Shown here piece after piece: positions 1-17,273 of a stretch of DNA of 64,000 nt. A program made the translations under genes and the position numbers. Numbering within the stretch: position 1 is the stretch's first letter; every line of letters begins with the position of its first letter. Source of the DNA: Candidatus Liptonbacteria bacterium (lineage in GTDB: Bacteria > Patescibacteriota > Minisyncoccia > UBA6257 > 2-01-FULL-56-20); the NCBI GenBank assembly GCA_023244895.1, contig JAHFLL010000001.1:745802-809801 (forward strand), read 5' to 3'. Below the pieces are notes generated by a model. The model worked only from the letters and a program-made list of their open reading frames with translations. It was not told the origin of the DNA and did no database searches.

Positions 1-407
1 GCCAAGGCCATACCAGCTCCCAATGGTAAGCCATGACCTCCCGAACCATTACTAGTCTCAAGTCCTGGTAAAACATCTAGAACGACATGGCTGGCCAATT
101 TCGTACCATCTCTGCCATACTCTTCCAGTTTCTCTATGGGGAAAAAACCGAAAAATCCTAGCGTAGCATAAACTGCCGATACGGCGTGTCCCTTACTTAG
201 GACCAACTTATCTCTACCTTCCTTTTTGGGATGGTGGGGATCAACCCTCATAACCCCACCAAAATACAAAGACGTTATTATGTCGGCGGCTGAAAGAGCG
301 GAACCAACATGGGAACTCTTGGCTCGATAAATTATTTCCACAATCTTGCGCCGAGTAAGCTTGGCCTGCGACTTTAGCTCTAAAATTTTTTCTGGGGCTG
401 CCGGCAT
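1..407 (-). CDS. Transketolase, N-terminal subunit (partial; 3' end lies beyond the window edge)
   Basis: Minus-strand reading from the ATG at 405-407 gives MPAAPEKILELKSQAKLTRRKIVEIIYRAKSSHVGSALSAADIITSLYFGGVMRVDPHHPKKEGRDKLVLSKGHAVSAVYATLG, which is the thiamine-diphosphate-binding N-terminal section of split transketolases. The ORF is open to the window edge. Confidence 0.6.
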   Translation of the reverse strand, partial: MPAAPEKILELKSQAKLTRRKIVEIIYRAKSSHVGSALSAADIITSLYFGGVMRVDPHHPKKEGRDKLVLSKGHAVSAVYATLGFFGFFPIEKLEEYGRDGTKLASHVVLDVLPGLETSNGSGGHGLPLGAGMAL

Positions 408-412
408 GATAA

Positions 413-1375
413 CTATTTTTTCACAAAAAATTCATTTTTCTTATAAACTAACTCTATGTTCTCCAGCTCTTCTGGAGTAAGTCCAGGGAGTTCGCTGGCT
501 CGTACATTTTCCTCTACTTCCGAAACCTTTAGCATCCCAGGAATAACCGTAGACACAGCATTAAAACCCAAACAAAATTGGAGGGCGAGTTGAGTGGGAG
601 TCCGTTCTGGATTGCGATTTACAAAAGAAAATAAGTCCGGCGCATCTGCCCATCGCTGGAGTTGTTCTTTGGACCAAGCAGAACGATGATCTTCCTGACT
701 GAAGTTAAAGTCTTTTATTTTTCCACTTAAGAAACCAAATGCAAGTGGCGTCCGCGCGATTACACCCACCCCCCTCTCTTGAGCCAAATCAAACACGCCT
801 TGCTCTAGGGCACGCTGGTCAATCATATTGAAGTTAGTTTGCACCGTCTCTGCCCCGAACTCCTTTATGGCAATCAGCGCTTCTGCTGGATTTTTAATGG
901 ATATGCCGAACGCTTTAATCTTCCCCTCTCTCTTTAACTCCAACATGGTCGAAACCGCATCTTCCGTATCACGTATAAGCTCCATGGGCGGACTGTGAAT
1001 CTGATAAACGTCTAGATAGTCCGTTCCTAGTCGCTTCAAGCTTTGTTCTATCTCCTGCCGGATATAACTGCCATGCACATCAAACGAACCCCTATGCCTC
1101 ACCATTCCGACCTTGCTCGCGATAACAACTTTATCGCGCAGCCCCTTGAAGGCCTGGCCCAACAATTCTTCGCTGTGACCATAACCGTACACATTAGAAG
1201 TGTCATAGAGCGTAATCCCAAGATCGAAAGCTGTTCTAAGCGCCCGCAGAGACTCTTCGTCATCTGTCTCGCCATAAGAATTAGCCCCATCTGAGGTTGC
1301 TCCTCCGATACCCCAAGTACCAAAACCAATTTCAGAAACCTTTATGCCCGTATTGCCGAGTATGCGATAATTCAT
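413..1375 (-). CDS. Aldo/keto reductase family oxidoreductase
   Basis: The N-terminus MNYRILGNTGIKVSEIGFGTWGIGG and the rest of the protein show the AKR fold signature. The length is 320 aa. Confidence 0.75.
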   Translation of the reverse strand: MNYRILGNTGIKVSEIGFGTWGIGGATSDGANSYGETDDEESLRALRTAFDLGITLYDTSNVYGYGHSEELLGQAFKGLRDKVVIASKVGMVRHRGSFDVHGSYIRQEIEQSLKRLGTDYLDVYQIHSPPMELIRDTEDAVSTMLELKREGKIKAFGISIKNPAEALIAIKEFGAETVQTNFNMIDQRALEQGVFDLAQERGVGVIARTPLAFGFLSGKIKDFNFSQEDHRSAWSKEQLQRWADAPDLFSFVNRNPERTPTQLALQFCLGFNAVSTVIPGMLKVSEVEENVRASELPGLTPEELENIELVYKKNEFFVKK

Positions 1376-1379
1376 GTTT

Positions 1380-2330
1380 TTATAATCTTAATTTATTTGC
1401 ATCTGGATAGTTGGCGACAAAATAGTCAACCGCTCTCTTGATCGTGTCCCGGATGGATGCATATTTGAAGCCGGACAATTTCAAAAAGCGCGAATTGTCG
1501 GTAGCCTTACGATACTGCCCCGCCGGCTTGGTGGTATCAAATGTTATTCGGCCAGGATCAATGCCTAGAAAATCCGCAATTAGATAAGCCGCGTCTTTTA
1601 TGGATATTTCTTCCATAGTGCCTATGTTTAGAACTTGCGCCTCATCATAATTATCAATCATCCAAACCGCTATTCTAGCTACGTCCTGATCAGAGGTGAC
1701 CTGGCGTAAGGGGGAACCATCTCCCCAAACAACTAAGGGGGCACTACCTTCTTTATTTTCGTAGAACCTCCTGATAAGGGCTGGGATAGCGGTAGACGAT
1801 TTCGGATCGAAATTACTGCGTGGACCCAAAATTGCATCTGGCACCATCCCCACGACACTCATTCCGTATTCATGACGATATGCCTTGATGGTAGGATCTA
1901 TCAAGCGCTTGGCAAAGGCATAACCATAATTCGCCTCATGGGGATATCCCCCGTGCATAGATTCTTCTTTAATAGGTATTTCCACATTTAAGGGATACAC
2001 CGCCCCGGATAAAGTCATAAGAACTTTCGGGGTTCCAACATTGCGAGCCGCCTCCAAGATACTAAAATTCATCAGAATGTTGTCGCGCATTACGCTTGCG
2101 GGATGGTCTATGGTCAATTGCAAACCACCTGAAATGGCAGCGAAATGGATAATCGCATCCGGCTTCAGATCCGCCACATATTTTTTAGTAGCTTCGAAAT
2201 CTAGAAGGTTGCAATCCTTAGAGCTCGGGAGAAAAAACTCCTTTTCAGGATATTCCCCCATCACGCTCCTTAGGCCAGTTCCAGCAACCGCCCCCCCGCC
2301 CGTAACCATTATTTTCTTGTATACGCTCAT
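1380..2330 (-). CDS. GDP-L-fucose synthase-like SDR epimerase/reductase (Fcl/ColC family), paralog 1
   Basis: The protein has a Gly-rich NAD-binding N-terminus, a YxxxK active-site motif, and a C-terminal segment (VVWGDGSPLRQ...DTTKP) that parallels Fcl. Confidence 0.55.
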   Translation of the reverse strand: MSVYKKIMVTGGGAVAGTGLRSVMGEYPEKEFFLPSSKDCNLLDFEATKKYVADLKPDAIIHFAAISGGLQLTIDHPASVMRDNILMNFSILEAARNVGTPKVLMTLSGAVYPLNVEIPIKEESMHGGYPHEANYGYAFAKRLIDPTIKAYRHEYGMSVVGMVPDAILGPRSNFDPKSSTAIPALIRRFYENKEGSAPLVVWGDGSPLRQVTSDQDVARIAVWMIDNYDEAQVLNIGTMEEISIKDAAYLIADFLGIDPGRITFDTTKPAGQYRKATDNSRFLKLSGFKYASIRDTIKRAVDYFVANYPDANKLRL

Positions 2331-2426
2331 GATCCTTAAATCTTAAGACAAATGCCCAACTAAACGCAAACCATGGCGCCACTCATCGCTCGATCTAGCG
2401 CAAAAACAGGCCTCTTTTGCCACTCG

Positions 2427-3365
2427 CTATATGTTTGCGTAGTTGTTGCGCTTCACTACCTGATACCCCTTGATTAACTCTTCCACTCCGTCTCCCAGGG
2501 GGATCTGGGGCTTGTAACCAGTCTTTTCTATTTTTTCATTGCTCACGATATAGTTGCGTTTGTCTGGATCCTCTCCGATTTTGGATTCCAAGAAAACAAA
2601 CTTAGGCAACTGCTTCTGTATCTCCGCGCAAAGCTCTAACTTGCTAAGATTGGCATTACTCAGGCCCACGTTATAAACCTGGCCCTTCATTTGCTCAAAA
2701 TTGTTTAAGGCATGCATAAAGGCCCGCACTACGTCGCGGACATGAATGTAGTTGCGCTTGAAGTTGCCCTCAAAAATGACTACCGCCCTATCGTTTACCG
2801 CACGATAAACAAAATCGTTTACCAGCAAGTCTAAGCGCATGCGAGGACTTACGCCGAACACGGTTGCCAACCGAAAAACTATTGCGTTTCCAGCAGCGAG
2901 CAACTCTTGCTCTGCTTGAACCTTGAGCTTGCCATAAAGAGAAATGGGGTCAAGTGGAGAATTTTCATCGCAATAGGCGACATCGCCCTGACCCCGGCCA
3001 TAACCGCTATTAGTGTTCGGAAAAATTATCTTCTGCTCCGGTTTGCGCAACCGCAGAATCATCTGAATTGCTTCCAGATTTATAGTTCTCGCGCCTACCG
3101 GATCCTTGTCGCAAAGAGGCGCTCCCACCAAACAGGCCAATGGAATGATAAAATCCTTGCCCTCCAGATGTTTTTTAATCAGCTCCTCGTTGCGTACATC
3201 CCCTCGCACAATCGTAAAGGCCTTGTAATTGCAAACGTCCAAAAGAGAGTTCTGCCCGTACATAAAATTGTCGATCACTGTGACCTCATGGCCCGCCCTT
3301 AAGAGCTCGGGCGTCAATACCGACCCGATATATCCCGCCCCACCCGTCACTAATATTTTAGACAT
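2427..3365 (-). CDS. NAD-dependent sugar-nucleotide epimerase/dehydratase (extended SDR)
   Basis: It contains the TGGAGYIGS Rossmann motif and a YGKLK catalytic YxxxK motif. Confidence 0.6.
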   Translation of the reverse strand: MSKILVTGGAGYIGSVLTPELLRAGHEVTVIDNFMYGQNSLLDVCNYKAFTIVRGDVRNEELIKKHLEGKDFIIPLACLVGAPLCDKDPVGARTINLEAIQMILRLRKPEQKIIFPNTNSGYGRGQGDVAYCDENSPLDPISLYGKLKVQAEQELLAAGNAIVFRLATVFGVSPRMRLDLLVNDFVYRAVNDRAVVIFEGNFKRNYIHVRDVVRAFMHALNNFEQMKGQVYNVGLSNANLSKLELCAEIQKQLPKFVFLESKIGEDPDKRNYIVSNEKIEKTGYKPQIPLGDGVEELIKGYQVVKRNNYANI

Positions 3366-3384
3366 AGTTTTATTAAATTTTATA

Positions 3385-4485
3385 TTATTTTTTTTCTAAC
3401 GGCGCACCAATGCTGGAAAAAATTTCTTTGAACCTTTTCTCGGCGTAGTGATCTTTAATGGTTCGCTCATATCCCCTCTGGGCTATTTTTTCTCGTTCCT
3501 CATTATGCTCTAAATAGTAATTAATTTTTTCTGCTAAATCTTTGTTGTCCCGATAAAAAATAATTTCTTCGCCAGGCTTGTAATAATCCCTCAAATCATC
3601 CGCGTCTTGAGTAATCTCCGCGGTTCCACATGCGGGAATCTCAAAATTCCTTGCCTTCACCTGTAAAATCTTTTTCTGCATCCAAGAAGCAAAATTATCT
3701 CGGAAATTATGGATGTCTAGCTTATAGGGCAGTCCCCCTTCTCCCAAAAAGGCCCTCCTTATAAAAAGCCTTATAATTGGACGCCAGCCGAAATAAAAGG
3801 CGGGGGGGTTGAGGGACAGACTTATCTTACTACGATTTATAATGTCTATCATTTCTTCCTGGGTAACCGCTCCCTCTGGCCAACCGTTACCCCTGGTCAA
3901 AACTGAGATGTTTTTATCGCGAAGATAAGAGATGGTTTCTCCTCTTAACTTGCTCCAAGTGCCAACGAAACTGACATTTATGTCTTTGGCGGTATTGGTT
4001 TTTTTGTAAGTGCTCAAATCCACGCCTGGTTGACTATGAATTACGTTTTGACAGCCTATCTCGCGATAACGCGCCGGTGCATCCCCGCAATACGTTACTA
4101 TCCAGGAAAAAAACGGTGCGAAGTGGCGAGAGATTCTATCCCAGCTCCAACTATCGTCTACACACATATAAACCAATTTGGAATTTGATTTTTCTTTGAG
4201 CGCGCGCAACGTCTCTATGCCTATATCGTATTCTGCCCCGTGGAAAATACACACCTCCGGTTTTTCTCGCAAAATGTGATCTATTAGCATTTTCCTTGCC
4301 GGGTCGCGGCCATGCTCAAGAATGGCCTCATCTATCCAAAAAAACTCCACGCTGTGACCATTAGCCTCGGCTAAACGCTTTAGGGGTTGATATTCCAAGT
4401 AATAATTGGCGGTCCCGTTGCGATTGGTCTTTTCCCAACTACGACTGTAGTAATCGTTGCGATAATCTACTAATAGTATCTTCAT
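3385..4485 (-). CDS. CgeB-like glycosyltransferase (DUF3880 / GT1-like C-terminal domain), paralog A
   Basis: The C-terminal block FEIPACGTAEITQDADDLRDYYKPGEEIIFYRDNKDLAEKINYYLEHNEEREKIAQRGYERT is characteristic of spore-maturation CgeB-type glycosyltransferases. The same block recurs at 7182..8249 and 8259..9299. Confidence 0.5.
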   Translation of the reverse strand: MKILLVDYRNDYYSRSWEKTNRNGTANYYLEYQPLKRLAEANGHSVEFFWIDEAILEHGRDPARKMLIDHILREKPEVCIFHGAEYDIGIETLRALKEKSNSKLVYMCVDDSWSWDRISRHFAPFFSWIVTYCGDAPARYREIGCQNVIHSQPGVDLSTYKKTNTAKDINVSFVGTWSKLRGETISYLRDKNISVLTRGNGWPEGAVTQEEMIDIINRSKISLSLNPPAFYFGWRPIIRLFIRRAFLGEGGLPYKLDIHNFRDNFASWMQKKILQVKARNFEIPACGTAEITQDADDLRDYYKPGEEIIFYRDNKDLAEKINYYLEHNEEREKIAQRGYERTIKDHYAEKRFKEIFSSIGAPLEKK

Positions 4486-4494
4486 GGGTGGATG

Positions 4495-5670
4495 CTATGA
4501 CCCGACTGCGCCCAACACTATTTTGGCAATAAATTCTACGTCTTCCGGCTTCATGCTGGGATGATTCGGTAGAAAAAGCCCCGTATAATGAATGCGATCC
4601 GCCATGGGGAAGGATGCTTTGCCGTAACGATTAATCCAAAATGGATGCAACCCCAAGTTGCCTGCCGAGAAAATTCTGGTCTCTACTCCATTTTCCTCCA
4701 AGACGCTAACTATTTTGCGCCGCTCCTCTCCATCTCTCGCCAATAATCCAAAGTGGATACTGCAAATTGTGTCCATTTCCCCATACTTTTGTATTTGGAA
4801 CCGTCCATTAAATATACTCTTGTATAAGTCATGATTTGCCTTGCGTCGCTCAATCAGCCATTCCATTTTGTCCACCTGACGGATACCTAAGAAAGCGTTT
4901 AAGTCTGTGGATCGCAAGTTAAATCCCGGCTCATAGAACACAAAGGGGGCATGGAAATTATCCACCCCATACTTGTCTATTAAGGCTTGATGGGTTTCTT
5001 TGTCCAAGTCCTTACCCCAGCCATGACTACGCAACATTAACAACAGGTCGTTAAACTTCTTGTTGTCTGTAGAGACAATGCCTCCCTCAATAGTAGATAT
5101 CTGGTGCCCAAAATATAGGGAGAAGCTAGACATGTCTCCGAACGTACCGACATGCTTTCCTTTATAAGAGGCACCCATCGCAGCACAAGCATCTTCCAAC
5201 AAGAAAAATCCATACTTCTTTTTGAGCGCCATAAGCTCATCCATCTTGTGAGGCACGCCCAAAACCTGAACCATCACCACGGTGCTAGGCTCGTGCTCAA
5301 TAAGTAGTTTCTCTAAGTGGACCAAATCCAGTCCGAAGGTGTCTGGATCAGCTTCGCACATAATTGGTTCGAACCCTAACTGAATTGCGGGGGCGATGGT
5401 CGTGACCCAGCCCACGCTAGGCACAATTACCTTTTTATTCTTAAGCTCGCCGGACAGGAGCAGAGCATCATACATCAAAAGATTTGCAGAAGAACCGGAG
5501 TTATTAAACACTGAATATTTGCGACCCAGCCAGGCATTCCATTTGGCCTCGAACTCCGGGGTCAATGGCCCCTTGGTCAGCCGCGGATAAGATTTAAGCC
5601 AGGAAATCAGGGCATCTATATCTTGATTATCAATCGTGTCTTCCGCTAGAAAATATTTTATTGGTTTCAT
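4495..5670 (-). CDS. DegT/DnrJ/EryC1 family PLP enzyme of the 3-dehydratase type (ColD / E1 DdhC-like; His replaces the PLP lysine)
   Basis: It has the DegT fold. The PLP-site motif reads SFSLYFGHQISTIEGG, with His where aminotransferases have Lys, as in GDP-4-keto-6-deoxymannose 3-dehydratase ColD and CDP-hexulose 3-dehydrase E1. Confidence 0.55.
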   Translation of the reverse strand: MKPIKYFLAEDTIDNQDIDALISWLKSYPRLTKGPLTPEFEAKWNAWLGRKYSVFNNSGSSANLLMYDALLLSGELKNKKVIVPSVGWVTTIAPAIQLGFEPIMCEADPDTFGLDLVHLEKLLIEHEPSTVVMVQVLGVPHKMDELMALKKKYGFFLLEDACAAMGASYKGKHVGTFGDMSSFSLYFGHQISTIEGGIVSTDNKKFNDLLLMLRSHGWGKDLDKETHQALIDKYGVDNFHAPFVFYEPGFNLRSTDLNAFLGIRQVDKMEWLIERRKANHDLYKSIFNGRFQIQKYGEMDTICSIHFGLLARDGEERRKIVSVLEENGVETRIFSAGNLGLHPFWINRYGKASFPMADRIHYTGLFLPNHPSMKPEDVEFIAKIVLGAVGS

Positions 5671-6605
5671 TGATTTTTTAAATTTTCTTTATACCAGGAA
5701 TAGGTACGCGCCAGACCATCTAGTAAGCCGATTTTAGCTTCCCAGCCCAAAGATTGCAAACGCTCTCCAGACAAGAGTTTGCGCAATGCACCATCCGGCT
5801 TGGATGCGTCCCAAGTGATTGTTCCAGAGAAACCAACCGTATGGGCTACGAGCTCCGCAAGCTCGCGAATAGAAACTTCCGAACTGCTGGCTATATTCAT
5901 TGTCCGCCATGGCAAATTGGGCTGATTCATAATAAACATACAGGCGTCGGCAATGTCGTCCGCATAAACAAATTCTCGTTGGGGCAGACCAGTACCCCAC
6001 AACTCAACCGTGGATGTGTTGTTTCGCACCGCTTCCTCAAAACGACGCAAAAAAACAGAAAGAACATGACCCTCATTAAGACTAAAATTGTCACCTGGTC
6101 CATAGGCAGTATTAGGAATAACTGTGACAAAATCCGTGCCGTATTGTTCGTGTAGATACTCCACCAGCTTCATCCCCGATATTTTTGCAATGGCATAGCC
6201 CAAGCTCGTTTCTTCCGGTAGCCCGCGCAAGAGCTCCTCCTCTCGCATGGGCTGAGCGCATGTCTTGGGATACATACACGAACTCCCAAAAAAAATAAGG
6301 CGCTTAACGCCAACATTATGCGCCGCGGATAAAACGTTTACCTGAATCTCTGTATTCTCAAGCAAAAAATCTGCTTGATGCGTACGGTTTGCCTGAATAC
6401 TACCAACCTTGCCCGCCGCCAGGAAGACATATTCTGGTCGCTCTATGTTAAAAAAATCTCGGACCGCTCGCTGATCGCGCAAATCTAATTCGGATCTGGT
6501 TTTAACAATAATGTTTGCATACCCCGCCTCTCGTAATTTTTGCAAAAGGGAACGGCCGATCAGTCCGGTGTGGCCCGCAACGTATATTTTAGAATCTCTT
6601 TCCAT
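5667..6605 (-). CDS. fcl: GDP-L-fucose synthase / GDP-L-colitose synthase-like reductase (Fcl/ColC), paralog 2
   Basis: It aligns along its whole length with Fcl (VAGHTGLIGRSL, FFGSSCMYPK, YAIAK, ending DASKPDG). Its start overlaps the downstream 3-dehydratase gene by 4 nt, which suggests translational coupling. Confidence 0.65.
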   Translation of the reverse strand: MERDSKIYVAGHTGLIGRSLLQKLREAGYANIIVKTRSELDLRDQRAVRDFFNIERPEYVFLAAGKVGSIQANRTHQADFLLENTEIQVNVLSAAHNVGVKRLIFFGSSCMYPKTCAQPMREEELLRGLPEETSLGYAIAKISGMKLVEYLHEQYGTDFVTVIPNTAYGPGDNFSLNEGHVLSVFLRRFEEAVRNNTSTVELWGTGLPQREFVYADDIADACMFIMNQPNLPWRTMNIASSSEVSIRELAELVAHTVGFSGTITWDASKPDGALRKLLSGERLQSLGWEAKIGLLDGLARTYSWYKENLKNQ

Positions 6606-6607
6606 GG

Positions 6608-7180
6608 TTATTTAAGCCTTGGCACTACCCGCTCACAGACGAAATGCACCAGAAGCGTATGCGCCTCTTGAATTATAGCCGTATTCTCGGAGGGAACCAC
6701 GATTGAAATGTCGCACTCCGATTTTATGATCCCTCCGTCTCGCCCCAGCAACCCGATAGTCTTCATGCCCAACTCTTTCGCTCTTCTCATGGCTTGAACT
6801 ATATTCTGAGAATTACCACTGGTAGATATCCCAAAAAACACATCCCCGACTTGGCCCAGAGCCTCTATCTGTCTAGAGAATATGCTATCCAGGTCGTCTT
6901 TTCCAAAATCGTTTATCCAGGCGGTAAGGTAGGACGTATCGGTAGTGAGGGAAACGGCGGGATACCCCTGTCTTTTCTCCCTATGTAGGGTGGCAACTAT
7001 TTCTGCGGAAAGGTGTTGCGCTTGAGCGGCGCTGCCCCCATTGCCCGCGATTAGCAATTTGTGCCTGGATATTAAGGTCGCACCTATCAGATCAATGGCC
7101 TGACCAACCTGTTTCTCTATGCCTCCATCTTTTAAGCTGGCAAGGGTGGAAATTGTCTCATCTAGTCTTTGATTAAACAT
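6608..7180 (-). CDS. gmhA: D-sedoheptulose-7-phosphate isomerase (SIS domain)
   Basis: The SIS-domain motif LIAGNGGSAAQAQH is present, and the 190 aa length is typical for GmhA. Confidence 0.7.
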   Translation of the reverse strand: MFNQRLDETISTLASLKDGGIEKQVGQAIDLIGATLISRHKLLIAGNGGSAAQAQHLSAEIVATLHREKRQGYPAVSLTTDTSYLTAWINDFGKDDLDSIFSRQIEALGQVGDVFFGISTSGNSQNIVQAMRRAKELGMKTIGLLGRDGGIIKSECDISIVVPSENTAIIQEAHTLLVHFVCERVVPRLK

Positions 7181-7181
7181 T

Positions 7182-8249
7182 TTATTTTTCTATTATAGAC
7201 CCTATTATTTTATCCACCGACTTGTCATAAGTGTAGTTCAATGCTATTGCTCTTGCTCGTTTTGCGCAAGACATCCTTTCTTCTGGTCGCTCTAAATAAT
7301 ATTCCACCTTTCTCTTGAGATCTTCATCGTCTTTGTAAAAACCGATGGATTCGCCGAATAATTCGTACGTTAGAGGCACCCGTTCGCTAACCTGGAAAAC
7401 ACCCGAAAGAGCTATGTCAAAAGTACGCTGAGTGGTAGTGGTAAAAGAATCTTTCGGCATACCCAAAGTACCTATTGCGATTTTAGCGCCATTGTAAACC
7501 AGATTGGACTTATCAATCGGCAAGGAGCCACCCCACTTGTCCTTGAGCCATGGGAACTCCAAAAATCCCATCTCCCATCCATAGCCATATATTTTCAGAT
7601 TGTATTCCCTGAATGCTTCCAGGGATTTAGCGCGTGAAGGTAAATATTTACCGATAAAGACTATGTCTGACTTATACTCTTCAGCAACCTCTGCTGGAAA
7701 AAATATATTGTGATCGGAGGCCAGAGGAAGAAGCTCGACTCTTTTTTTGTTTTTCTCCCAGAGCACCTCTCGCCAGAGCCCATCTCCCACCATAAAAACA
7801 CGGTCAAAATAATCAAATTTTTCCTCCCAAGTATCATCTCTAACAACTGGCTCTCCCAACCACAAGATCAGCTTGGCTTTAGTTAATGCGCGTAATAACT
7901 TCAAGACAAGATGCGATCCAGGCGTCCAAATAAAAACAACCAGACTATCTTTTCGCCAAGACAACCAGGCCCGAAACAATACCTCTAGTTCTGTTACGAA
8001 TTGGCGAGCTGTTTTTAGATAACGAAACAACCTGGGAGTTACTCGCCGGAGGGTCATCTTCGCGCGCTCTAAAACGTTGACTACTGAATCCTTGTTTCCG
8101 CCCCAAGTAGCGGGTACGGAATTATTATAGACAATAGTAGCGGCTAGGCCCCTCCGCAAGCAGGCCTGATAAAAAAGCTTGGCCCAATCTCCATACCAAG
8201 CAGCCCCAACCACCACTATTCTGACATTCTTCCTGATCATATCTGCCAC
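7182..8249 (-). CDS. CgeB-like glycosyltransferase, paralog B
   Basis: The C-terminal motif FDIALSGVFQVSERVPL...FYKDDEDLKRKVEYYLERPEER matches the two other CgeB-like paralogs. Confidence 0.45.
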   Translation of the reverse strand: MADMIRKNVRIVVVGAAWYGDWAKLFYQACLRRGLAATIVYNNSVPATWGGNKDSVVNVLERAKMTLRRVTPRLFRYLKTARQFVTELEVLFRAWLSWRKDSLVVFIWTPGSHLVLKLLRALTKAKLILWLGEPVVRDDTWEEKFDYFDRVFMVGDGLWREVLWEKNKKRVELLPLASDHNIFFPAEVAEEYKSDIVFIGKYLPSRAKSLEAFREYNLKIYGYGWEMGFLEFPWLKDKWGGSLPIDKSNLVYNGAKIAIGTLGMPKDSFTTTTQRTFDIALSGVFQVSERVPLTYELFGESIGFYKDDEDLKRKVEYYLERPEERMSCAKRARAIALNYTYDKSVDKIIGSIIEK

Positions 8250-8258
8250 GTTGCGCAG

Positions 8259-9299
8259 CTAGCCTACTCCAGCTTTGTTAAAAATATCCTCTAACCTTTT
8301 CATGTAAGAGTGCTCTTTTACTGTCCTCTCATATCCAGCCTTAGCGATCCTCTCGCGTTCAGCGTCATGCTCCAGGTAGTACCTTATCTTGTCTATATAA
8401 TCATCATCATTCTCATAGAAAACTATTTCTTCTCCCGGTTTGAAGTAGTTTTCTAAATCATCTGCATGGGCAGTTAGCATAAATCCCCCGCAGGCGGGTA
8501 TCTCGAAGTGCCTGCCTTTAATCTGGCGCGTGCCTCTTCCGAGAAAGCTCCTCAAATTGGAGTAAAAATGATAGTCCGGAACGATCTTGTCTACGGATCT
8601 TCGGAAAAATAACCTACCCACGCTGTCTTTGTTCCAAAACCCGGGCGGCGGATTAAGCGCCAAACTCACCTTACTAATACCGAAAAGCTTGACCATCTCT
8701 TCGTCGCTCGCCCGTTTGGCGCTTGGCCATCCCCCGCCCCAAACATCCACCGGTATGCCCGCGTTGCGAATCTTGTCTACAATTTCCCCTCGGGGCTTAC
8801 TCCAGCCACCCACAAAAGTCGTGTCTGGCCTATCGGCTGGAACCGGACTGGGCTTATAAACATCGATGTTCGCCCCCCATTGGGAACGGATAACGTTTGG
8901 CTGACCGTGCTTTTTATATATCTCCGGCATCCAGGAGTAGGTGGTGATAGCCCAAGAGAAATACTTGGCCCAAATACGGGAATAATTCCAGTAGCGCCAG
9001 CTATCATCCGAAAACCAAGCTATGCTTACAGTTCGATCTTTTATTTTATCTAGGATATAAGGAGAAAATTCATCTGTGTACATGAATGCGAAGAATACGT
9101 CTGGCTTAAAATCAATTACTTTGGCCAACAGCTCTGCGTTGAACCTGTCTTTGGTTGATTGCAAGATCTTGTCAAACGCGAAAAATTCAACCTGATGCGA
9201 CGAGCTCTTCAGCTGTGTGTAAAAATTATGATACTCAAAGCTCTTCCCTCGCTTAGGATCATATTTATCGTTTTCTAATCCGGCAAAAAGTATCTTCAT
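8259..9299 (-). CDS. CgeB-like glycosyltransferase, paralog C
   Basis: It has the block HFEIPACGGFMLTAHADDLENYFKPGEEIVFYENDDDYIDKIRYYLEHDAERERIAKAGYERT. The N-terminal two thirds are also similar to paralog A (motifs WSKPRGE and SLALNPP). Confidence 0.5.
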   Translation of the reverse strand: MKILFAGLENDKYDPKRGKSFEYHNFYTQLKSSSHQVEFFAFDKILQSTKDRFNAELLAKVIDFKPDVFFAFMYTDEFSPYILDKIKDRTVSIAWFSDDSWRYWNYSRIWAKYFSWAITTYSWMPEIYKKHGQPNVIRSQWGANIDVYKPSPVPADRPDTTFVGGWSKPRGEIVDKIRNAGIPVDVWGGGWPSAKRASDEEMVKLFGISKVSLALNPPPGFWNKDSVGRLFFRRSVDKIVPDYHFYSNLRSFLGRGTRQIKGRHFEIPACGGFMLTAHADDLENYFKPGEEIVFYENDDDYIDKIRYYLEHDAERERIAKAGYERTVKEHSYMKRLEDIFNKAGVG

Positions 9300-9431
9300 A
9301 TCTTTCTAAGTTATCTTTATTTTATACTCACTCTGACTTACTAATCAAACGTTTGATTGCACTACATCTCCTCAATAGCAAGCCTAAAAATGTTTTTTGG
9401 TATTTTGCACGAGATTTCTTGCCTCCACTTA

Positions 9432-10394
<963 letters not shown>

Positions 10395-10491
10395 CTAGAA
10401 GTATAGACCCGACCCTGGTTTTGGACAAATTTTAAGGCGCGTCCCCACTGGGAGACGCGCCTCATACGAGCCCGGACGCTATCCGGGCAAT

Positions 10492-11301
10492 CTATCTAAT
10501 GAGCGGAGCGACGAGTGTGCGCAGCTCGTCCGAGAGCTGGCGCGAGCACGCGATCACAATCGGGAACTTGCGCTGCCCGATTTCCGGATCCGCGAGATCC
10601 GGAACCGGCTCGTCCGCGGCTACGCCAGTCACGACGCAACCGGCCGCCCGGCAGATGGGGATGGCGGCAGCTACATCGAAGATGGTAGCGCCGGCGTGGA
10701 CATAGGCGTCCAACTTGCCCTGTGCCACCAGCATCGCCTCCCACACGAAGGAATTGATCATGCCGGTCATGCGGGCTTTCTGCCGGACATCCACGAATAC
10801 AGATTCCAACCCGGGCCAAGCTCCCACATCGACGAGAGCATCCCGAAGTCTGCAAGGGGAGGGCGACTCGACTCGGAGGTCGAAAGTTGCGGACAGGTCA
10901 CATTCGTAGCTCATACCCGCCTTGCCGTCGTCTTCCACCCAGAACCAGCTGCCCGCGCCGTCCACGGGTAGATAGATCATGCCGAACCCCCGGACGGTAC
11001 CGGCAGAGAGACCCCAGTAGTCCGACCCGCCGGCATAGTTCGCGGTTCCATCGATTGGGTCCAGAAACCATGTCCTCCCGCCAGTGAAGAATTCTCCTTC
11101 TTCGCTCATGATGCCGTCGCTGGGGAACATCTGGCGTAGCGCGACTGCGAGGATTCTTTCCGACTTCAGATCCGCTTCGGTCACAACGTCTTGAGGGGAG
11201 GTTTTGTCTTTGACCTCCATGCCCTCGCGAAGCGCTTCCAGGGCGGCGCTCCCCGCCTGAGTCATCGCGCTGGCCAGAGCCAGAATTTCTTCTCTAGTCA
11301 C
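10492..11301 (-). CDS. Inositol monophosphatase family phosphatase (GC-rich island A)
   Basis: It carries the WFLDPIDGTANYAGG signature of the IMPase/CysQ/SuhB family. GC content is about 65 %, against about 45 % for the flanking genes. Confidence 0.6.
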   Translation of the reverse strand: MTREEILALASAMTQAGSAALEALREGMEVKDKTSPQDVVTEADLKSERILAVALRQMFPSDGIMSEEGEFFTGGRTWFLDPIDGTANYAGGSDYWGLSAGTVRGFGMIYLPVDGAGSWFWVEDDGKAGMSYECDLSATFDLRVESPSPCRLRDALVDVGAWPGLESVFVDVRQKARMTGMINSFVWEAMLVAQGKLDAYVHAGATIFDVAAAIPICRAAGCVVTGVAADEPVPDLADPEIGQRKFPIVIACSRQLSDELRTLVAPLIR

Positions 11302-11302
11302 G

Positions 11303-11890
11303 CTACACCCCCTTCTCTAGGAAGTTGACTGCCCAGCGCGTTGCCTGGACTGACTTGGCGTCCGAAATCAGGCCGTCGTCACACATTGCGACCCAGTCTG
11401 CCAGGTCGTAGAGAACCGGCAGGATGAGCTCGGTCCCATCCGGCTTCGGCTCCTGCACGAGCTCACATTCTTGAGCGACAGCCACCAGGCCCTCCATGCG
11501 TAAGGAGGCGGGGTCAACGAATACTCTGCGATCCCAGAAGATGTGAATGTATCTGGGCCAGTAGCCGGTCTCCTCGACCAACTCCACTCTGACCACATCC
11601 TCGTGGGTCTGCCCGGCCTTGGGATTGCCCCCAGGTAGCTCCAAGATCCAGGCGTTAATCGCGTGGCGATACTGCCAGGTCACAATGACTTCGTTTGCCT
11701 TGGTGACCGGAAAGATGAACACCGGTCGGGTGTTGGCGCCGAACAACCAAAAGTCGGCGGTTTTCCCGTCCGGATAGGAGAAGTCCTGAGAGAACATTCT
11801 CCTGCCGTACCTCTGGAGCTGAACCTGTTCGGGACCCAGTTGGGGCGAAATCCTAGCTGCCGGGACCTCGCCTCTTCGCAACTTCAGCAT
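11303..11890 (-). CDS. Nudix-family hydrolase (GC-rich island A)
   Basis: It has a Nudix-like box GGNPKAGQTHEDVVRVELVEETGY with one residue of slippage. The gene is GC-rich, has a GGGGGA-type RBS, and its stop is 2 nt from the IMPase start. Confidence 0.45.
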   Translation of the reverse strand: MLKLRRGEVPAARISPQLGPEQVQLQRYGRRMFSQDFSYPDGKTADFWLFGANTRPVFIFPVTKANEVIVTWQYRHAINAWILELPGGNPKAGQTHEDVVRVELVEETGYWPRYIHIFWDRRVFVDPASLRMEGLVAVAQECELVQEPKPDGTELILPVLYDLADWVAMCDDGLISDAKSVQATRWAVNFLEKGV

Positions 11891-11971
11891 CTTGATCCCC
11901 CGCTACAAACCACAACGTATTCCTATGCAGGTCCCGGGTGGGACCCAGGACCGACTAGGCCAAGTTATAAA

Positions 11972-12001
11972 TTAAAAAACCATTTCAGTCAATAAAATGG
12001 T
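11972..12001 (-). terminator. Rho-independent terminator downstream of gmd
   Basis: On the minus strand there is a hairpin ACCATTTT-ATTGACTGA-AAATGGT followed by TTTTTTAATTT. Confidence 0.5.
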
Positions 12002-12050
12002 CTCTCGAAGAAAACCCTAAAAATATTAAATACTTGTCGCCTGCTACTAC

Positions 12051-13046
12051 CTATTTCTCACTTCCCAACAATTTTATGTCCGCATCTACCATAATCTTTA
12101 CCAAATCCTCAAACTTGGTACTGGCCGTCCAACCCAACTTATTTTTTGCCTTAGTGGTATCCGCGATAAGATTTTCCACTTCCGTCGGGCGATAGTAGCG
12201 CTGATCTATTTCTACATACTTCTCCCAATCCGGTAGACCAGCATATTGGAAAGCCGCTACTAGAAACTCTTTAACAGAATGACTCTCGCCAGTGCCGATC
12301 ACGTAATCTTCCGCCACAGGTTGCTGGAGCATCAGCCACATTGCTTCCACATATTCTTTGGCATAACCCCAATCGCGCCTGGCCTCCAAATTTCCTAAGT
12401 ATAACTTCTTGTCTAGGCCTGCTTTTATGCGTGCTATTCCGCGAGTTATTTTTCTGGTAACGAACGTCTCCCCCCTGCGCGGACTTTCATGATTGAAGAG
12501 GATACCGTTTACCGCGAACATTCCGTACGCCTCCCGGTAGTTACGGGTCATGTAATACGCGAATGCCTTAGAGGCACCATAGGGACTGCGCGGATAGAAA
12601 ACGGAGTTCTCGTTTTGGGGGGGTGGCGTAGCGCCAAACATTTCCGAACTGGAAGCCTGGTAAAACTTTATCTTCCGGTCGGTATCTTCCTGATAATCCT
12701 TAACGGCCTCTAATACTCGCAAAGCACCGAGCCCGGTAATATTCGCGGTATACTCCGGAATATCAAACGATACGCGCACATGAGATTGAGCGCCTAAGTT
12801 ATATATTTCATCCGGTTGAATTTGATAAATCAGCTTGCGCAAAGTACTGGAGTCAGACAGGTCCCCATAATGCAACTTAAAAACATACTTATCCGCATGC
12901 GGGTCCTGATAAATATGATCTACCCGACTAGTATTAAAGGTGGAGGCACGCCTCATCACGCCGTGAACCTCGTATCCTTTTTGGAGCAGAAACTCCGCCA
13001 GATAGCTACCGTCTTGTCCGGTTATGCCGAAAATTAACGCCCTCAT
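12051..13046 (-). CDS. gmd: GDP-mannose 4,6-dehydratase
   Basis: The N-terminus [46 protein letters not shown] is canonical Gmd, as is the whole 331 aa protein. Confidence 0.85.
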
Positions 13047-13675
13047 TTTTTATTTTCCGCTTTTGGTACGACTATGACTAGGTCTTCCACCAGCTTTCTG
13101 GTTTTTTCATCTTTTGGCCAATCCTCCAGGATTTTATCCGTAACCGACTTGAACCGATCGCCATCCTGCTTAAACCTATAAATGTCCATTAAGCCATAGA
13201 GATACTGGGGACGATTAGGAGAGGACTCCGCGCCTTGCAAGAAGGCTTGTTCGGCGGTGTCTAAATATATAGGATTTTTTGACTGGATAGCCGATATCTC
13301 ATGTATCACGCCGAGAATATACAGGTCCTGCCCGAAGCTCATGCCGCGACCCCTCTCTATTATCGGATTATAATATCCCGCCAGAAACTTTAAACTGGCG
13401 TCTATCAATTCGGTATTATTAGTGTTTCTAATAACCGACATCAAGGAGTTGGCTAGGTTGCGAACCAGCTCCGGTTGGCCGATCGGCGAGTTTAACTCTA
13501 GAGCAGGAACAATCGCTCTCTTTAGATCGTCCAAGCTTTTAGCATTTGCCGCCTTTTGACTGGCCAGCACATAAGCGACCGACTTCCTCCAGGGCAAGTA
13601 GTTTCCATAGATGCCCACTCCGAGCATGACTATTCCTAGCGAAACTGCAATTATATGCTTAATGGATTGATTCAT
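13043..13675 (-). CDS. Hypothetical membrane-anchored protein
   Basis: It has an N-terminal TM helix. It is co-operonic with gmd (4 nt overlap) and with the O-antigen-ligase-like gene. Confidence 0.35.
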
Positions 13676-13680
13676 AGAAA

Positions 13681-15027
13681 TTATCTGACAGGGTTTTTGT
13701 TTCCCCTTAGAATATGCACCCCGAAAGCCAGGAGGATAAATAAATTGATATAAATCGGCAAGACATCAAACAAAGCTAAAGCCTGCACAAAATATGCCAC
13801 CGGCATTGCCACTAGAAGTCCGGTCATGAGCGGATGCTCGCGTAGGCCCCTCTTCCAAAGTTGCCAGTAGAAGGCCGCGAACATAGATAAGTAGGCCAAT
13901 AAGCCCACTATCCCTGTTTCGGATAGATAATCGAAGAAGACGCTATGCGCTCTATCGAACCAAGTTTCTCTGTTCTCTCCAGGAACGAAGTGACGTGCAT
14001 CAAAATACTTATCAAAGACGGTGGTAAAGTTCTCCGGGCCCCAGCCCAAGATGGGTCGTTCTTTGAACCCGCGCCAAGCGCTACCCCAGGTCCAAAATCT
14101 GGTCTGTGCCGTGGCTTCTCCAAAATCCAAGAATAATAGACGACTACCGGGCATTTGTTTGATAAACGATCTGTCGCGTAGACCAAAGGCTAAGGCGCCT
14201 AAAAGGAATAATCCAAATAGAATCAAAACCGCGATAATACGCAGTTTCTTCTGGCCATATACACAGAGATATCCTAGATACGCCAGTGCTCCGACAATAA
14301 GGCCCAACATAGCCCCACGCGTGCCAGCCAGCCAGAAGAATAAAAAGAAGAAGGCAATAAGTAATAAGTAACTAAAATGTCCCAACCAATCTCTTTTCTT
14401 GCTGAACCAAAGCCACATCCCGAAGAAGGAAACAAAAATAAGATATATGGAAACATAGGCGGGGTTGCCGAGAGATCCCTGAAAACGATATTGTGGCTCT
14501 ACCAGTCGGGACCAAAGGGTAGGAGTATTCAGCTCTGGATGCGAAAAGTAAGGACCTAGAAAACCGGAGGCTCCTATTGCCGCCGCTAATCCATAAAAAA
14601 TCATAAGCGTAGCTGCCACTAAAGATGAACGGAAAAGAATCTTCCAATCTCGCTCATCCTCAAAGAGAGTCACGAGCAACAGGAAAAATAGGTAGTAATG
14701 AATCATCTGGAAGGCGCCCTCGCCCCGCTCAAAATTAGACCAAATTGCGGAGTGCACATCCCAGGCGAATAAGGCGGCCAAGGTGTATGCAGCAGTGAAG
14801 GCGCTAACCGCCCATACGATTGGCTTATTGAACGCGTTTTTTAACCGCTCCCCCAGATTACCCCGCTCAAAGGCCCACCACAGAAGAGTGCAAATGACCG
14901 CGAACTCTATTACCCAGCGGAAAAAGTAGTACTTCACTCCGATAAACGGGAAATAGTTACTACCCGCCACCAGAACAACCGCGAAAACGGATGTGTGCAG
15001 AAAGAATTTGGATAGTTTGAGAAACAT
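13681..15027 (-). CDS. O-antigen ligase / Wzy_C-family polytopic membrane protein
   Basis: It has about 10 TM helices and a periplasmic-loop motif RAHSVFFDYLSETGIVG that fits the O-antigen ligase consensus H-[NS]-x-x-L-x(4)-E-x-G-x-x-G. Confidence 0.5.
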   Translation of the reverse strand: MFLKLSKFFLHTSVFAVVLVAGSNYFPFIGVKYYFFRWVIEFAVICTLLWWAFERGNLGERLKNAFNKPIVWAVSAFTAAYTLAALFAWDVHSAIWSNFERGEGAFQMIHYYLFFLLLVTLFEDERDWKILFRSSLVAATLMIFYGLAAAIGASGFLGPYFSHPELNTPTLWSRLVEPQYRFQGSLGNPAYVSIYLIFVSFFGMWLWFSKKRDWLGHFSYLLLIAFFFLFFWLAGTRGAMLGLIVGALAYLGYLCVYGQKKLRIIAVLILFGLFLLGALAFGLRDRSFIKQMPGSRLLFLDFGEATAQTRFWTWGSAWRGFKERPILGWGPENFTTVFDKYFDARHFVPGENRETWFDRAHSVFFDYLSETGIVGLLAYLSMFAAFYWQLWKRGLREHPLMTGLLVAMPVAYFVQALALFDVLPIYINLFILLAFGVHILRGNKNPVR

Positions 15028-15107
15028 GGAATTAATATATAGTGGGAGGCAAATAATGAATTAGGAGTTTTTTGCTTTCTACATTCTAATTACTACTTTC
15101 CGAATAT

Positions 15108-16628
15108 TTATCTGGCATATTCCACCGCGCGGACCTCGCGAATAACATTAACTTTAATCTCCCCTGGGAATTTTAGCTCGGATTGGATGCGATTCGCAAT
15201 CTCTCTGGCTAATTCTAATGCGCGGAAATCGTCTATTTTCTCTGGGATTACGAATACGCGCAATTCCCTACCCGCGGATATGGCATAGGACTGTTTTATG
15301 CCCGGGAAACCGTTTGCGATTTTTTCCAGATCCGCCAGCCGCTTAATGTAATTTTCAATATTGTCCCTGCGCGCGCCCGGACGGCCGGCAGAAATAACAT
15401 CCGCCGCTGTTACCACATACGCCTCCGAGGTGGCATAAGGATAGTCTTCATGGTGAGACTGCATGGCCTGCACCACCTTCTCGTCCACACCATATTTCCG
15501 CAAAATTTTAATACCTAATTCTACGTGCGTGCCTTCTACTTCATGGTCAATCGCCTTACCAATGTCGTGCAAGAGGGCTCCCTTTCTGGCTACCTCCACG
15601 TTGAGTCCCAATTCCGACGCCATCATAGCGGCCAGATACGCCATTTCAATGGAATGAGTCAAAACGTTTTGACCATAGCTGGTACGGAACTGAAGCCTGC
15701 CTAAAAGCTGAACAATCTCCTTGGGCAGATCATATACACCAACCTCCATAGTGGCTGCCTCGCCAATTTCCGTTATTCTCTTATTGAGCTCCTGCTTAGC
15801 CTCTTCTACTTTCTCTTCAATCTTGGCGGGCTGAATACGCCCGTCCTTGACCAGCTTCTGCAAAGCTAAACGCGCCACTTCTCTGCGATAGGGGTCAAAA
15901 GAAGAGATAACAACCGCGTCCGGCGCTTCGTCTATCACGAACTCCACTCCAGTCGCACGCTCCAACGCGCGGATATTGCGCCCCTCTCGTCCGATTATTT
16001 TGCCCTTCAGCTCCTCGTCCTCCAAGGGGAAGATAGTGGTAGTGGCTTCCGAGATATGCGACCGCGCATAGCGTTGCAGAGCCACCGTGATAATCTCCAT
16101 GGATTTCTTCTCTATCTCGTCGTGTCTTTCTTTCTCTATCTTTTGCAAGGTCTGAGCCAACTCCTGGGAACTTTCGGATTTTATCCTGCTGAATAGCTCT
16201 TCTTTCGCGCCTTGTTCGGTCAACTTGGCAACCCTTTGCAACTCTGCGTTTATCTTTTCACGACCAGCCTCGGCTTCCGCCTGCTTACCCTTCAACTCTT
16301 CCGCGTAGCGGCGCAACTCATTTTCTCCCCGTTCAATATTGCTTAACTTTTTATCCAACGTTTCTTCTCTCTCAATTAGACGAGACTCTAAAGCCGTGAG
16401 TCTATTTTTTTGCTCGCGCTCATCATTCTTTACCTCAGTTATAAGCGAGGCTGCCTTTTCTTTGGCCTCCAGGACAATCTCCTTAGCCTTGGTCTCCGCC
16501 TCGCTTAATTTGCGCTTACCCTCCTGCTCTAGCGAAGAGTTTAGATTTACTATCTGAGATCTGCGGATTAGATAACCCGCTAGGGCGCCTAAAGCTAAGG
16601 CACCCGCCCCGATTAGGTAGGTATTCAT
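15108..16628 (-). CDS. rny: Ribonuclease Y
   Basis: It has an N-terminal TM helix, a coiled coil, a KH domain and an HD domain (LLHDIGKA). Confidence 0.85.
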   Translation of the reverse strand: MNTYLIGAGALALGALAGYLIRRSQIVNLNSSLEQEGKRKLSEAETKAKEIVLEAKEKAASLITEVKNDEREQKNRLTALESRLIEREETLDKKLSNIERGENELRRYAEELKGKQAEAEAGREKINAELQRVAKLTEQGAKEELFSRIKSESSQELAQTLQKIEKERHDEIEKKSMEIITVALQRYARSHISEATTTIFPLEDEELKGKIIGREGRNIRALERATGVEFVIDEAPDAVVISSFDPYRREVARLALQKLVKDGRIQPAKIEEKVEEAKQELNKRITEIGEAATMEVGVYDLPKEIVQLLGRLQFRTSYGQNVLTHSIEMAYLAAMMASELGLNVEVARKGALLHDIGKAIDHEVEGTHVELGIKILRKYGVDEKVVQAMQSHHEDYPYATSEAYVVTAADVISAGRPGARRDNIENYIKRLADLEKIANGFPGIKQSYAISAGRELRVFVIPEKIDDFRALELAREIANRIQSELKFPGEIKVNVIREVRAVEYAR

Positions 16629-16768
16629 TGTGATATTTAGTTGTTTCTATGGTCTCGAACGAAAGTGAATACATTAAAGAACGGACGTTACCAGGAAACA
16701 AAAGACTTAATTAATTGACGTTTTAACCAACTTATTGATTGTACCAGTCAATAGGCGAAGAAGCAAGA

Positions 16769-17188: not shown

Positions 17189-17273
17189 GTTGTAAGTATA
17201 CTATAAAAAACGTAGTTTAAGTCTTAAACCAATAGAGAACCCACTCCCCCTAATAATCTGCTAAAATATACCT

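Follow-up and report, generated by a model that had tools for sequence, protein, structure and literature searches.

Which nucleotide sugars does a glycan locus make when it holds both a canonical GDP-mannose 4,6-dehydratase (Gmd) and a heptose-type gene set, together with a sugar-modifying enzyme of the DegT fold that has a His in place of the usual catalytic Lys? The question is posed by a minus-strand gene array of a Candidatus Liptonbacteria bacterium, located in a 64,000-nucleotide stretch of contig JAHFLL010000001.1 (the window, to which all coordinates refer unless a related locus is named). The initial annotation of this array had proposed that Gmd, a ColD/E1-type 3-dehydratase encoded at 4495-5670 and a ColC-like reductase provide GDP-colitose or a related 3,6-dideoxyhexose. 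From gene content and synteny we favour, with modest confidence, a GDP-heptose route instead, in which a Cj1427-type enzyme would oxidise C4 and a ColD-type enzyme would remove the 3-OH group, with an ordinary GDP-fucose module alongside.

Families were assigned by Pfam and NCBIfam profile searches, and structural relatives by sequence matches to the PDB. In the 4495-5670 product, the DegT_DnrJ_EryC1 domain (PF01041) spans residues 13-384, as expected for a DegT/AAT fold-type I pyridoxal phosphate (PLP) enzyme. Its best PDB match is ColD of E. coli O55 (2gms, E 5e-51), and E1 of Yersinia is matched with E 2e-37 (3bcx). The protein carries the motif SFSLYFGHQISTIEGG, and the His within SLYFGHQISTIEGG aligns to His188 of ColD, i.e. 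to the position of the Schiff-base (internal-aldimine) lysine; the ColD mutant entries H188N and H188K (3b8x, 2r0t) differ from the wild type at exactly this column. An alignment of 193 relatives, comprising 120 database proteins and proteins translated from related loci, revealed His at this position in every sequence and no conserved Lys near the site. The predicted active-site His is thereby borne out, the aligned position being the lysine equivalent. The equivalents of ColD Asp159, Ser183, Trp88 and Asn248 are likewise invariant (193/193), and that of Arg331 is kept in 192 sequences. Together with Arg219, these residues bind the cofactor and the nucleotide in ColD.

A [2Fe-2S] Cys motif and an E3 partner mark E1 and not ColD. 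The 4495-5670 protein has the length of ColD (391 amino acids), contains three Cys only and thus has no 4-Cys Fe-S motif, and no ferredoxin-reductase-like (E3) gene was found among the 35 kb examined. It is therefore of the ColD type. The Fe-S- and E3-dependent E1 type was rejected on these grounds and on the lower E1 score, so that only the ColD half of the annotated ColD/E1-type function stands. A pyridoxamine phosphate (PMP)-dependent sugar C3-dehydratase is a credible assignment. With ColD (WbdK; E. coli O55, Y. pseudotuberculosis) and the C3-dehydratases of C. jejuni HS:5 and HS:11, the protein shares the DegT fold, a size of about 390 amino acids, the His at the lysine position and the equivalents of Asp159, Ser183, Trp88, Asn248 and Arg331. 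The absence of an Fe-S cysteine motif and of an E3 partner and the GDP-sugar context are further features in common. The protein belongs to a separate, highly conserved clade apart from ColD, in which it is 50-82% identical to sequences of Patescibacteria, Elusimicrobia, Nitrospira, Deltaproteobacteria, KSB1, Rokubacteria, Methylomirabilia and a Nanoarchaeota bin.

The gene that points to a heptose substrate lies at 2427-3365. It encodes the further short-chain dehydrogenase/reductase (SDR) already listed by the initial annotation. Among solved structures its product matches 6vo6/6vo8 with E 2.9e-115, the next-best relative following at 7e-24. The 6vo6 sequence is a 313-amino-acid C. jejuni protein, whose gene has those of an Fcl-like SDR and a cupin epimerase as neighbours on one side; the opposite flank encodes a GHMP kinase, an SIS protein and a nucleotidyltransferase. 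Because this neighbourhood shows the Cj1430-to-Cj1423 order, the protein is Cj1427. When compared directly, 2427-3365 and Cj1427 are 58% identical over 310 amino acids (E 3e-134). On this similarity, which sets it clearly apart from other SDRs, we regard 2427-3365 as the ortholog of Cj1427, the GDP-heptose C4-dehydrogenase. Cj1427-type enzymes oxidise GDP-heptose at C4 with a tightly bound NADH that is recycled by alpha-ketoglutarate (PMC10680097). The Raushel group has combined Cj1427 with a ColD-type C3-dehydratase in vitro, which yielded GDP-D-glycero-3-deoxy-4-keto-heptose, and presents this as a way to novel GDP-3-deoxy-heptoses; ColD-type C3-dehydratases accept 6-deoxy as well as 6-hydroxy 4-keto substrates in vitro (PMC10680097). 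In C. jejuni HS:2, no C3-dehydratase lies beside Cj1427, and the combination has been assembled only in vitro (PMC10680097).

Synteny joins the two genes. We retrieved 80 related loci, called their open reading frames (ORFs) and clustered the products at a threshold of at least 45% identity; co-occurrence was counted in those 43 loci in which the dehydratase gene is flanked by 6 kb or more on each side (intact loci). An ortholog of 2427-3365 is present in 41 of the 43, and the other two also show one by BLAST. GHMP kinase genes were counted in 36 intact loci, B12-binding radical-SAM enzymes in 28 and small nucleotidyltransferases in 18, whereas a canonical Gmd occurs in just three. The conserved partner of the clade is thus a C4-dehydrogenase and not a 4,6-dehydratase, which is why the predicted product keeps its 6-OH group.

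A source of GDP-heptose is likewise suggested by the gene content. The GmhA-like protein (6608-7180) shares 49% identity with GmhA of C. jejuni across 150 amino acids. The genes left of the window were read from an identical public contig (L001/L004). Beyond the edge, the two halves of the transketolase are followed by a GHMP kinase and a GT2 glycosyltransferase, then by a methyltransferase-GT4 fusion, a second Wzy_C protein and a HAD phosphatase, and further out by another GT2, a Wzx-type flippase and a 237-amino-acid NTP_transferase. HddA is the best NCBIfam model of the GHMP kinase (145 bits, cutoff 600), and its four best PDB matches are D-glycero-D-manno-heptose phosphate kinases (3k85, 4n3o, 4usk, 4usm; E 7e-40 to 4e-32), with fucokinases next (1e-15). 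The HAD protein resembles GmhB (149 bits, cutoff 178). GmhA, the HddA-like kinase, the GmhB-like phosphatase and the nucleotidyltransferase, the latter three encoded just outside the window, would make up a complete-looking GDP-heptose set. In common with the Cj1427/Cj1428/Cj1430 pathway of C. jejuni NCTC 11168, the locus has a GmhA-like protein, a putative GHMP heptose-phosphate kinase, a small nucleotidyltransferase, the Cj1427 ortholog and GFS-like (GDP-fucose-synthase-like) C4 reductases. Unlike in that pathway, a cupin (RmlC-like) epimerase is absent from the window, where a Cys/His dyad is kept by Fcl-like enzymes instead; additional members are a thiamine diphosphate (ThDP) enzyme and an aldo/keto reductase.

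A separate observation concerns the closest Patescibacteria relatives, L005 (3379-7242) and L075 (182-5301). In both, a paralogous second heptose set lies upstream of the dehydratase gene and adds to the GHMP kinase of the cassette type, consisting of a GHMP kinase, an SIS protein, an SDR and an NTP_transferase-HAD fusion. Both GHMP paralogs of these loci score about 133-147 bits on the HddA model, so that the scores do not single out the true HddA.

The SDRs of the Fcl type were compared by active-site residues. All three paralogs named by the initial annotation are present, and with 379, 264 and 179 bits none reaches the equivalog cutoff of 500. They were aligned to E. coli GDP-fucose synthase (GFS); the placement of Ser107, Cys109, Tyr136, Lys140 and His179 at the expected positions supports the reference sequence used. 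The Ser107/Tyr136/Lys140 triad and the Cys109/His179 epimerase dyad are both kept in 5667-6605, and 9432-10382 has Thr/Tyr/Lys plus the Cys/His dyad. In 1380-2330, Ser/Tyr/Lys are retained and the dyad is lost (Cys109 to Ala, His179 to Thr). GFS owes its epimerase activity to the Cys/His dyad, and heptose reductases of C. jejuni in which it is missing are reductases only (PMC7949155), from which we conclude that 1380-2330 is probably a plain reductase.

Gmd itself matches plant and bacterial GMDs with E 1e-143 to 1e-94 (1n7g, 5e-143) and the GDP-heptose 4,6-dehydratase of C. jejuni (7us5) with only 8e-33; a role as heptose 4,6-dehydratase was rejected on these values. In the Gmd-bearing relatives L006, L007 and L010 a 5667-type gene is found within a few genes of Gmd, and in L007 directly beside it. 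Because of this gmd-fcl association and the canonical nature of Gmd, we assign Gmd and one Fcl homolog to a separate module for fucose or another 6-deoxyhexose. Like the gmd-fcl(-gmm) module for colanic acid in E. coli, this module would pair a canonical Gmd with a GFS homolog in which every catalytic residue is kept, and a NUDIX hydrolase gene lies beside gmd; different are the presence of three Fcl-like paralogs below the cutoff and a NUDIX protein that is weakly similar to known families and encoded in a GC-rich interval. Since 5667-6605 is translationally coupled to the dehydratase gene, its product could instead, or also, act as a ColC-like 5-epimerase/4-reductase on the 3-deoxy-4-keto product, be it a hexose or a heptose.

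A further recurrent partner is a ThDP enzyme. Over 73 related loci we found one in 58, and the 15 loci without it are mostly truncated contigs. Its type varies: E1 alpha/beta in 28 loci, acetolactate-synthase/YerE-type in 14, split transketolase in 13, and both E1 and transketolase in three. The YerE type never occurs with E1 or transketolase, and the three architectures are almost mutually exclusive. In 21 loci the E1 or transketolase pair lies no more than two genes from the dehydratase gene, usually immediately upstream. This pattern suggests one function filled by analogous, unrelated ThDP enzymes. In the scheme for acyl-branched sugars, a 3-dehydratase is followed by a YerE-type ThDP enzyme, which C-acylates the 3-deoxy-4-keto sugar, and by a reductase that acts on the side chain; the scheme has been shown for yersiniose and proposed for erwiniose and caryophyllose (PMC9306805). 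As in those pathways, the product of a PMP 3-dehydratase, a 3-deoxy-4-keto nucleotide sugar, would arise here next to a ThDP enzyme and reductases, so by analogy a C4 branch introduced by the ThDP enzyme is possible. Whereas the yersiniose-type pathways use CDP-hexose with an Fe-S E1 and an E3, the predicted scaffold here is GDP-heptose with a ColD-type enzyme. Moreover, the ThDP enzyme of this locus is a split transketolase, maybe a plain transketolase, which keeps the branching hypothetical. Its best PDB match is the split-chain transketolase 6yak (E 8e-65), and the L004 sequence contains the ThDP motif GDG...N. A literature search for split transketolases in polysaccharide clusters returned no relevant paper. 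Homologs of the aldo/keto reductase gene 413-1375 occur in L006, L068 and L074 (48-55% identity), and an aldo/keto reductase is also present in L002.

Gene content, active-site residues, Cj1427 orthology and conserved synteny are the observations from which we infer what the dehydratase acts on, in which order the steps follow, whether a branch is added and which sugar results. Two GDP-sugar modules would feed one surface-glycan assembly line with at least seven glycosyltransferases, two Wzy_C proteins and a Wzx flippase encoded just outside the window. In the first module, the canonical Gmd and a GFS-type epimerase/reductase would supply GDP-L-fucose or a related 6-deoxyhexose. The second would be heptose-based and contain the His-variant dehydratase. 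Here 2427-3365 would oxidise C4 of GDP-heptose with retention of the 6-OH group. The 4495-5670 enzyme would then form a PMP ketimine at C4, with the His at the lysine position acting as base, and expel the 3-OH to give GDP-3-deoxy-4-keto-heptose; PMP would be regenerated from glutamate, so that an E3-type reductase would not be needed. Thereafter, the 4-keto group might be epimerised and reduced by an Fcl-like SDR (5667-6605 or 1380-2330). Alternatively, the ThDP enzyme might first add a carbon branch according to YerE-type logic, and an SDR or the aldo/keto reductase would reduce the side chain.

Several findings weigh against this GDP-heptose route. The 4495-5670 protein is just 29.6% identical to ColD, whereas the characterised hexose and heptose GDP-sugar C3-dehydratases of E. 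coli, Yersinia and C. jejuni share 62-67% (PMC10440746), and ortholog-level similarity to these enzymes is thus not reached. Compared with ColD and the HS:5/HS:11 enzymes, the clade also differs at several positions: Gly stands in place of Ser187 throughout, Ala replaces Glu162 in nearly all sequences and Lys replaces Arg219 in most, and His189 is replaced by Gln. In this genome the canonical Gmd is part of the same array, and the dehydratase gene is coupled to the GFS/ColC-like gene while the Cj1427-like gene lies two genes downstream. On the supply side, the GHMP kinase and HddA of C. jejuni share only 27% identity, GmhA, kinase and phosphatase all score under their NCBIfam equivalog cutoffs, and the NTP_transferase is known from a gene call and a 47-amino-acid fragment only, the fragment being 37% identical to HddC. 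As for branching, the ThDP enzyme is of the transketolase type, with a genuine transketolase as nearest solved relative. It may simply supply sedoheptulose-7-phosphate; in a deltaproteobacterial locus, a transaldolase gene adjoins the SIS gene. Given the promiscuity at C6 in vitro (PMC10680097), colitose could be made as well.

The colitose route of the initial annotation is chemically possible, yet we consider it unlikely as the primary function. Gmd would provide GDP-4-keto-6-deoxymannose, the His-variant enzyme would remove the 3-OH, and an Fcl/ColC-like SDR would epimerise C5 and reduce C4 to GDP-L-colitose. It would make use of a canonical Gmd from the same co-directional array and of a dehydratase whose best solved relative is ColD, with the catalytic His conserved; 5667-6605, which overlaps the dehydratase start, has the full GFS triad and the Cys/His dyad. 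ColD-type enzymes tolerate different C6 substituents (PMC10680097), and the genome has all steps except ManB and ManC, which, as the initial annotation had stated, are both absent from the window. What speaks against it is the company the clade keeps: Gmd in three and the Cj1427 type in essentially all of the intact loci. In addition, the distance from ColD far exceeds that among the proven GDP-sugar C3-dehydratases (PMC10440746), and in relatives the 5667-type gene sits near Gmd, the two being the standard fucose pair. Nor would this route assign a role to GmhA, GmhB, the heptose-kinase-like gene or the Cj1427 ortholog.

We regard a pathway of the C. jejuni HS:5 type as improbable. GDP-heptose would be 4,6-dehydrated, 3-dehydrated, epimerised and reduced to a GDP-3,6-dideoxyheptose, a sequence of steps known from C. 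jejuni (PMC10440746). In its favour, the locus has what looks like a complete GDP-heptose supply, together with a C3-dehydratase and reductases of the Fcl type, and about eight related loci hold a 7us5-type SDR, mostly directly after the dehydratase. The window, however, has no 7us5-type dehydratase, its sole 4,6-dehydratase being the canonical Gmd, and the conserved partner is of the non-dehydrating C4-dehydrogenase type. An SDR of about 329 amino acids directly follows the dehydratase in ten of the related loci (L009, L012, L014, L019, L021, L034, L051, L061, L065 and L066); the L009 representative has the C. jejuni GDP-heptose 4,6-dehydratase 7us5 as its best PDB match (E 1.3e-51). Some members of the dehydratase family may make 3,6-dideoxyheptoses.

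Least credible is a reading of the DegT-fold protein as a sugar aminotransferase, or as a PMP enzyme with another outcome, that leads to a 4-amino sugar: the DegT family consists mostly of aminotransferases, the top NCBIfam match is PseC (sub-threshold), the clade departs from ColD at Ser187, Glu162 and Arg219, and ColD itself has a low aminotransferase side activity, but the Schiff-base lysine is replaced by His throughout the alignment with no conserved Lys near the site, and ColD reportedly turns into an aminotransferase only upon exchange of His188 for Lys (Holden laboratory; an engineered ColD H188K entry exists in the PDB).

For the wider family, the preferred GDP-heptose route can be extended, though tentatively and with less confidence than the route itself. 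The dehydratase, the Cj1427-type enzyme, the GHMP kinase, an interchangeable ThDP carboligase and often a B12-radical-SAM enzyme might constitute one horizontally mobile cassette for an undescribed GDP-activated heptose that is 3-deoxygenated, C4-branched and possibly C-methylated. This sugar would be used at the surface in Patescibacteria, Elusimicrobia, Rokubacteria and Deltaproteobacteria and perhaps on the flagellum in Nitrospira. A literature search, of incomplete coverage and thus weak evidence of novelty, returned no natural 3-deoxyheptose or Patescibacteria heptose glycan beyond the in vitro work. In Nitrospira the cassette runs in the order dehydratase, Fcl-like SDR, Cj1427-like SDR, GHMP kinase, nucleotidyltransferase, aminotransferase, B12-binding radical-SAM enzyme, YerE-type ThDP enzyme, methyltransferase. 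In L053 (1-21155) and about 20 other Nitrospira loci, the genes immediately upstream of it are flgK, a flgL-like gene, fliW and those for a hybrid histidine kinase, an HD-GYP-like protein and a YcgR-type PilZ protein. This setting hints that the sugar decorates the flagellum. In the Patescibacteria window, by contrast, the cassette sits among glycosyltransferase, Wzy_C and Wzx genes.

An analogous cassette is found on plasmid AZO_p6 of Azospirillum lipoferum 4B (L085, NC_016588.1 33016-61939). It encodes an SDR that is Cj1427-like and 63% identical to 2427-3365, E1 alpha and beta, an SIS protein, an HddC-GmhB fusion and a His-variant DegT protein. The latter belongs to the ColD-proper clade (49% identity to ColD, 32% to 4495-5670; motif SHHISTMEGG). 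Since this ColD-proper enzyme has the same neighbours, the two clades of His-type dehydratases share partners. The module adjoins genes for TPR proteins, a GT41 glycosyltransferase and sulfotransferases. The comparison turned up no cultured carrier of the 4495-5670 clade; although only analogous, the AZO_p6 cassette of this cultured strain offers a tractable system for identifying the sugar.

The features of the array are compiled in the table below. All ORFs listed by the initial annotation were found at their minus-strand coordinates and every checkable detail was correct, including Gmd, the GmhA-like protein, the three CgeB-like glycosyltransferases, the O-antigen-ligase-like (Wzy_C) membrane protein and a gene of the bifunctional phosphoglucose/phosphomannose isomerase (PGI/PMI) family at 21278-22261 (195 bits, under its cutoff of 254). 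The proposed decoration of a surface glycan with GDP-linked sugars holds up as well.

Features of the minus-strand glycan array in window coordinates, with the supporting family or structure match
Feature	Coordinates	Strand	Match
Split-transketolase N subunit, first 135 aa	3..407	-	identical to L004 10969-11796; runs off left edge
Aldo/keto reductase, candidate side-chain/keto reductase	413..1375	-	PF00248 E 1.6e-63
GDP-fucose-synthase-like SDR	1380..2330	-	NCBIfam Fcl 179 bits; PDB human GFS 4e5y E 2e-60
GalE-like SDR, Cj1427-type	2427..3365	-	PDB 6vo6/6vo8 E 2.9e-115
Glycosyltransferase, CgeB-like	3385..4485	-	PF13524 E 5.9e-29
Putative His-variant DegT-fold PLP/PMP sugar C3-dehydratase, ColD-type, distinct clade	4495..5670	-	PF01041 E 4e-69
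GDP-L-fucose-synthase/ColC-like 3,5-epimerase-4-reductase	5667..6605	-	Fcl 379 bits; E. coli GFS 1bsv E 1.2e-88
GmhA-like sedoheptulose-7-phosphate isomerase	6608..7180	-	TIGR00441 178 bits, cutoff 209
Glycosyltransferase	7182..8249	-	PF13524 E 2.7e-20
Glycosyltransferase	8259..9299	-	PF13524 E 5.4e-32
Second GDP-fucose-synthase-like epimerase/reductase	9432..10382	-	Fcl 264 bits; PDB 8du0 E 8e-59
Inositol-monophosphatase-family phosphatase	10492..11301	-	PF00459 E 2.4e-28
NUDIX hydrolase	11303..11890	-	PF00293 E 9e-8
Canonical GDP-mannose 4,6-dehydratase (Gmd)	12051..13046	-	TIGR01472 527 bits, cutoff 415
210-aa protein	13043..13675	-	no Pfam/NCBIfam match
Wzy_C membrane protein (polymerase, ligase or O-oligosaccharyltransferase family)	13681..15027	-	PF04932 E 4.6e-16

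From 15027 to the left window edge the minus strand is an uninterrupted co-directional array, which continues beyond 1380 through the aldo/keto reductase gene and the split transketolase. The stop of 5667-6605 and the start of 4495-5670 overlap as ATGA, in agreement with the translational coupling that had been proposed. Gmd and the ORF for the 210-amino-acid protein overlap by 4 nt, and the other junctions measure 1-20 nt. A promoter/terminator scan of 1-17300 gave counts at the level of shuffled sequence and was uninformative on operon limits. Orthologs of the 3385-4485 glycosyltransferase directly follow the dehydratase in L005 and L010. In L006 and L007, too, a homolog of the 210-amino-acid protein (38-40% identity) is encoded upstream of Gmd; the one in L006 has a Wzy-like gene as its other neighbour.

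The interval 10001-12000 has a GC content of 56% (0.563), compared with about 46% in the neighbouring intervals, and holds 10492-11890 with the inositol-monophosphatase-family and NUDIX genes; the contrast suggests a recent foreign insertion of these two. From its position beside gmd, the NUDIX protein (11303-11890) is possibly a nucleotide-sugar hydrolase. Genes for NUDIX and inositol-monophosphatase-like proteins of about 30% identity recur in the Patescibacteria-type loci L010, L017, L068, L071 and L075. Elsewhere in the window, the minus-strand ORF 28045-31500 encodes a 1151-amino-acid class-I aminoacyl-tRNA synthetase of the IleRS-like type (tRNA-synt_1 in two stretches, Anticodon_1, DUF5915). 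An unusual feature for a synthetase is a histidine-phosphatase domain (His_Phos_1, PGAM-like) inserted at residues 505-660, within the catalytic domain.

If the colitose interpretation were true instead, the locus would be an ordinary new member of a known pathway. If the heptose interpretation is true, the combination of Cj1427 and a C3-dehydratase, so far assembled only in vitro, is already used in nature. This would represent a new nucleotide-sugar pathway, provide annotation rules for thousands of proteins now named DegT aminotransferase or NAD-dependent epimerase, and yield enzymes with which rare heptoses, deoxy or branched, could be synthesised. At the protein level, the cassette keeps 50-80% identity in at least half a dozen phyla. 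Its carriers include Nitrospira, a key nitrifier, and bacteria of the candidate phyla radiation, for which next to nothing is known of the surface chemistry that probably governs their attachment to hosts.

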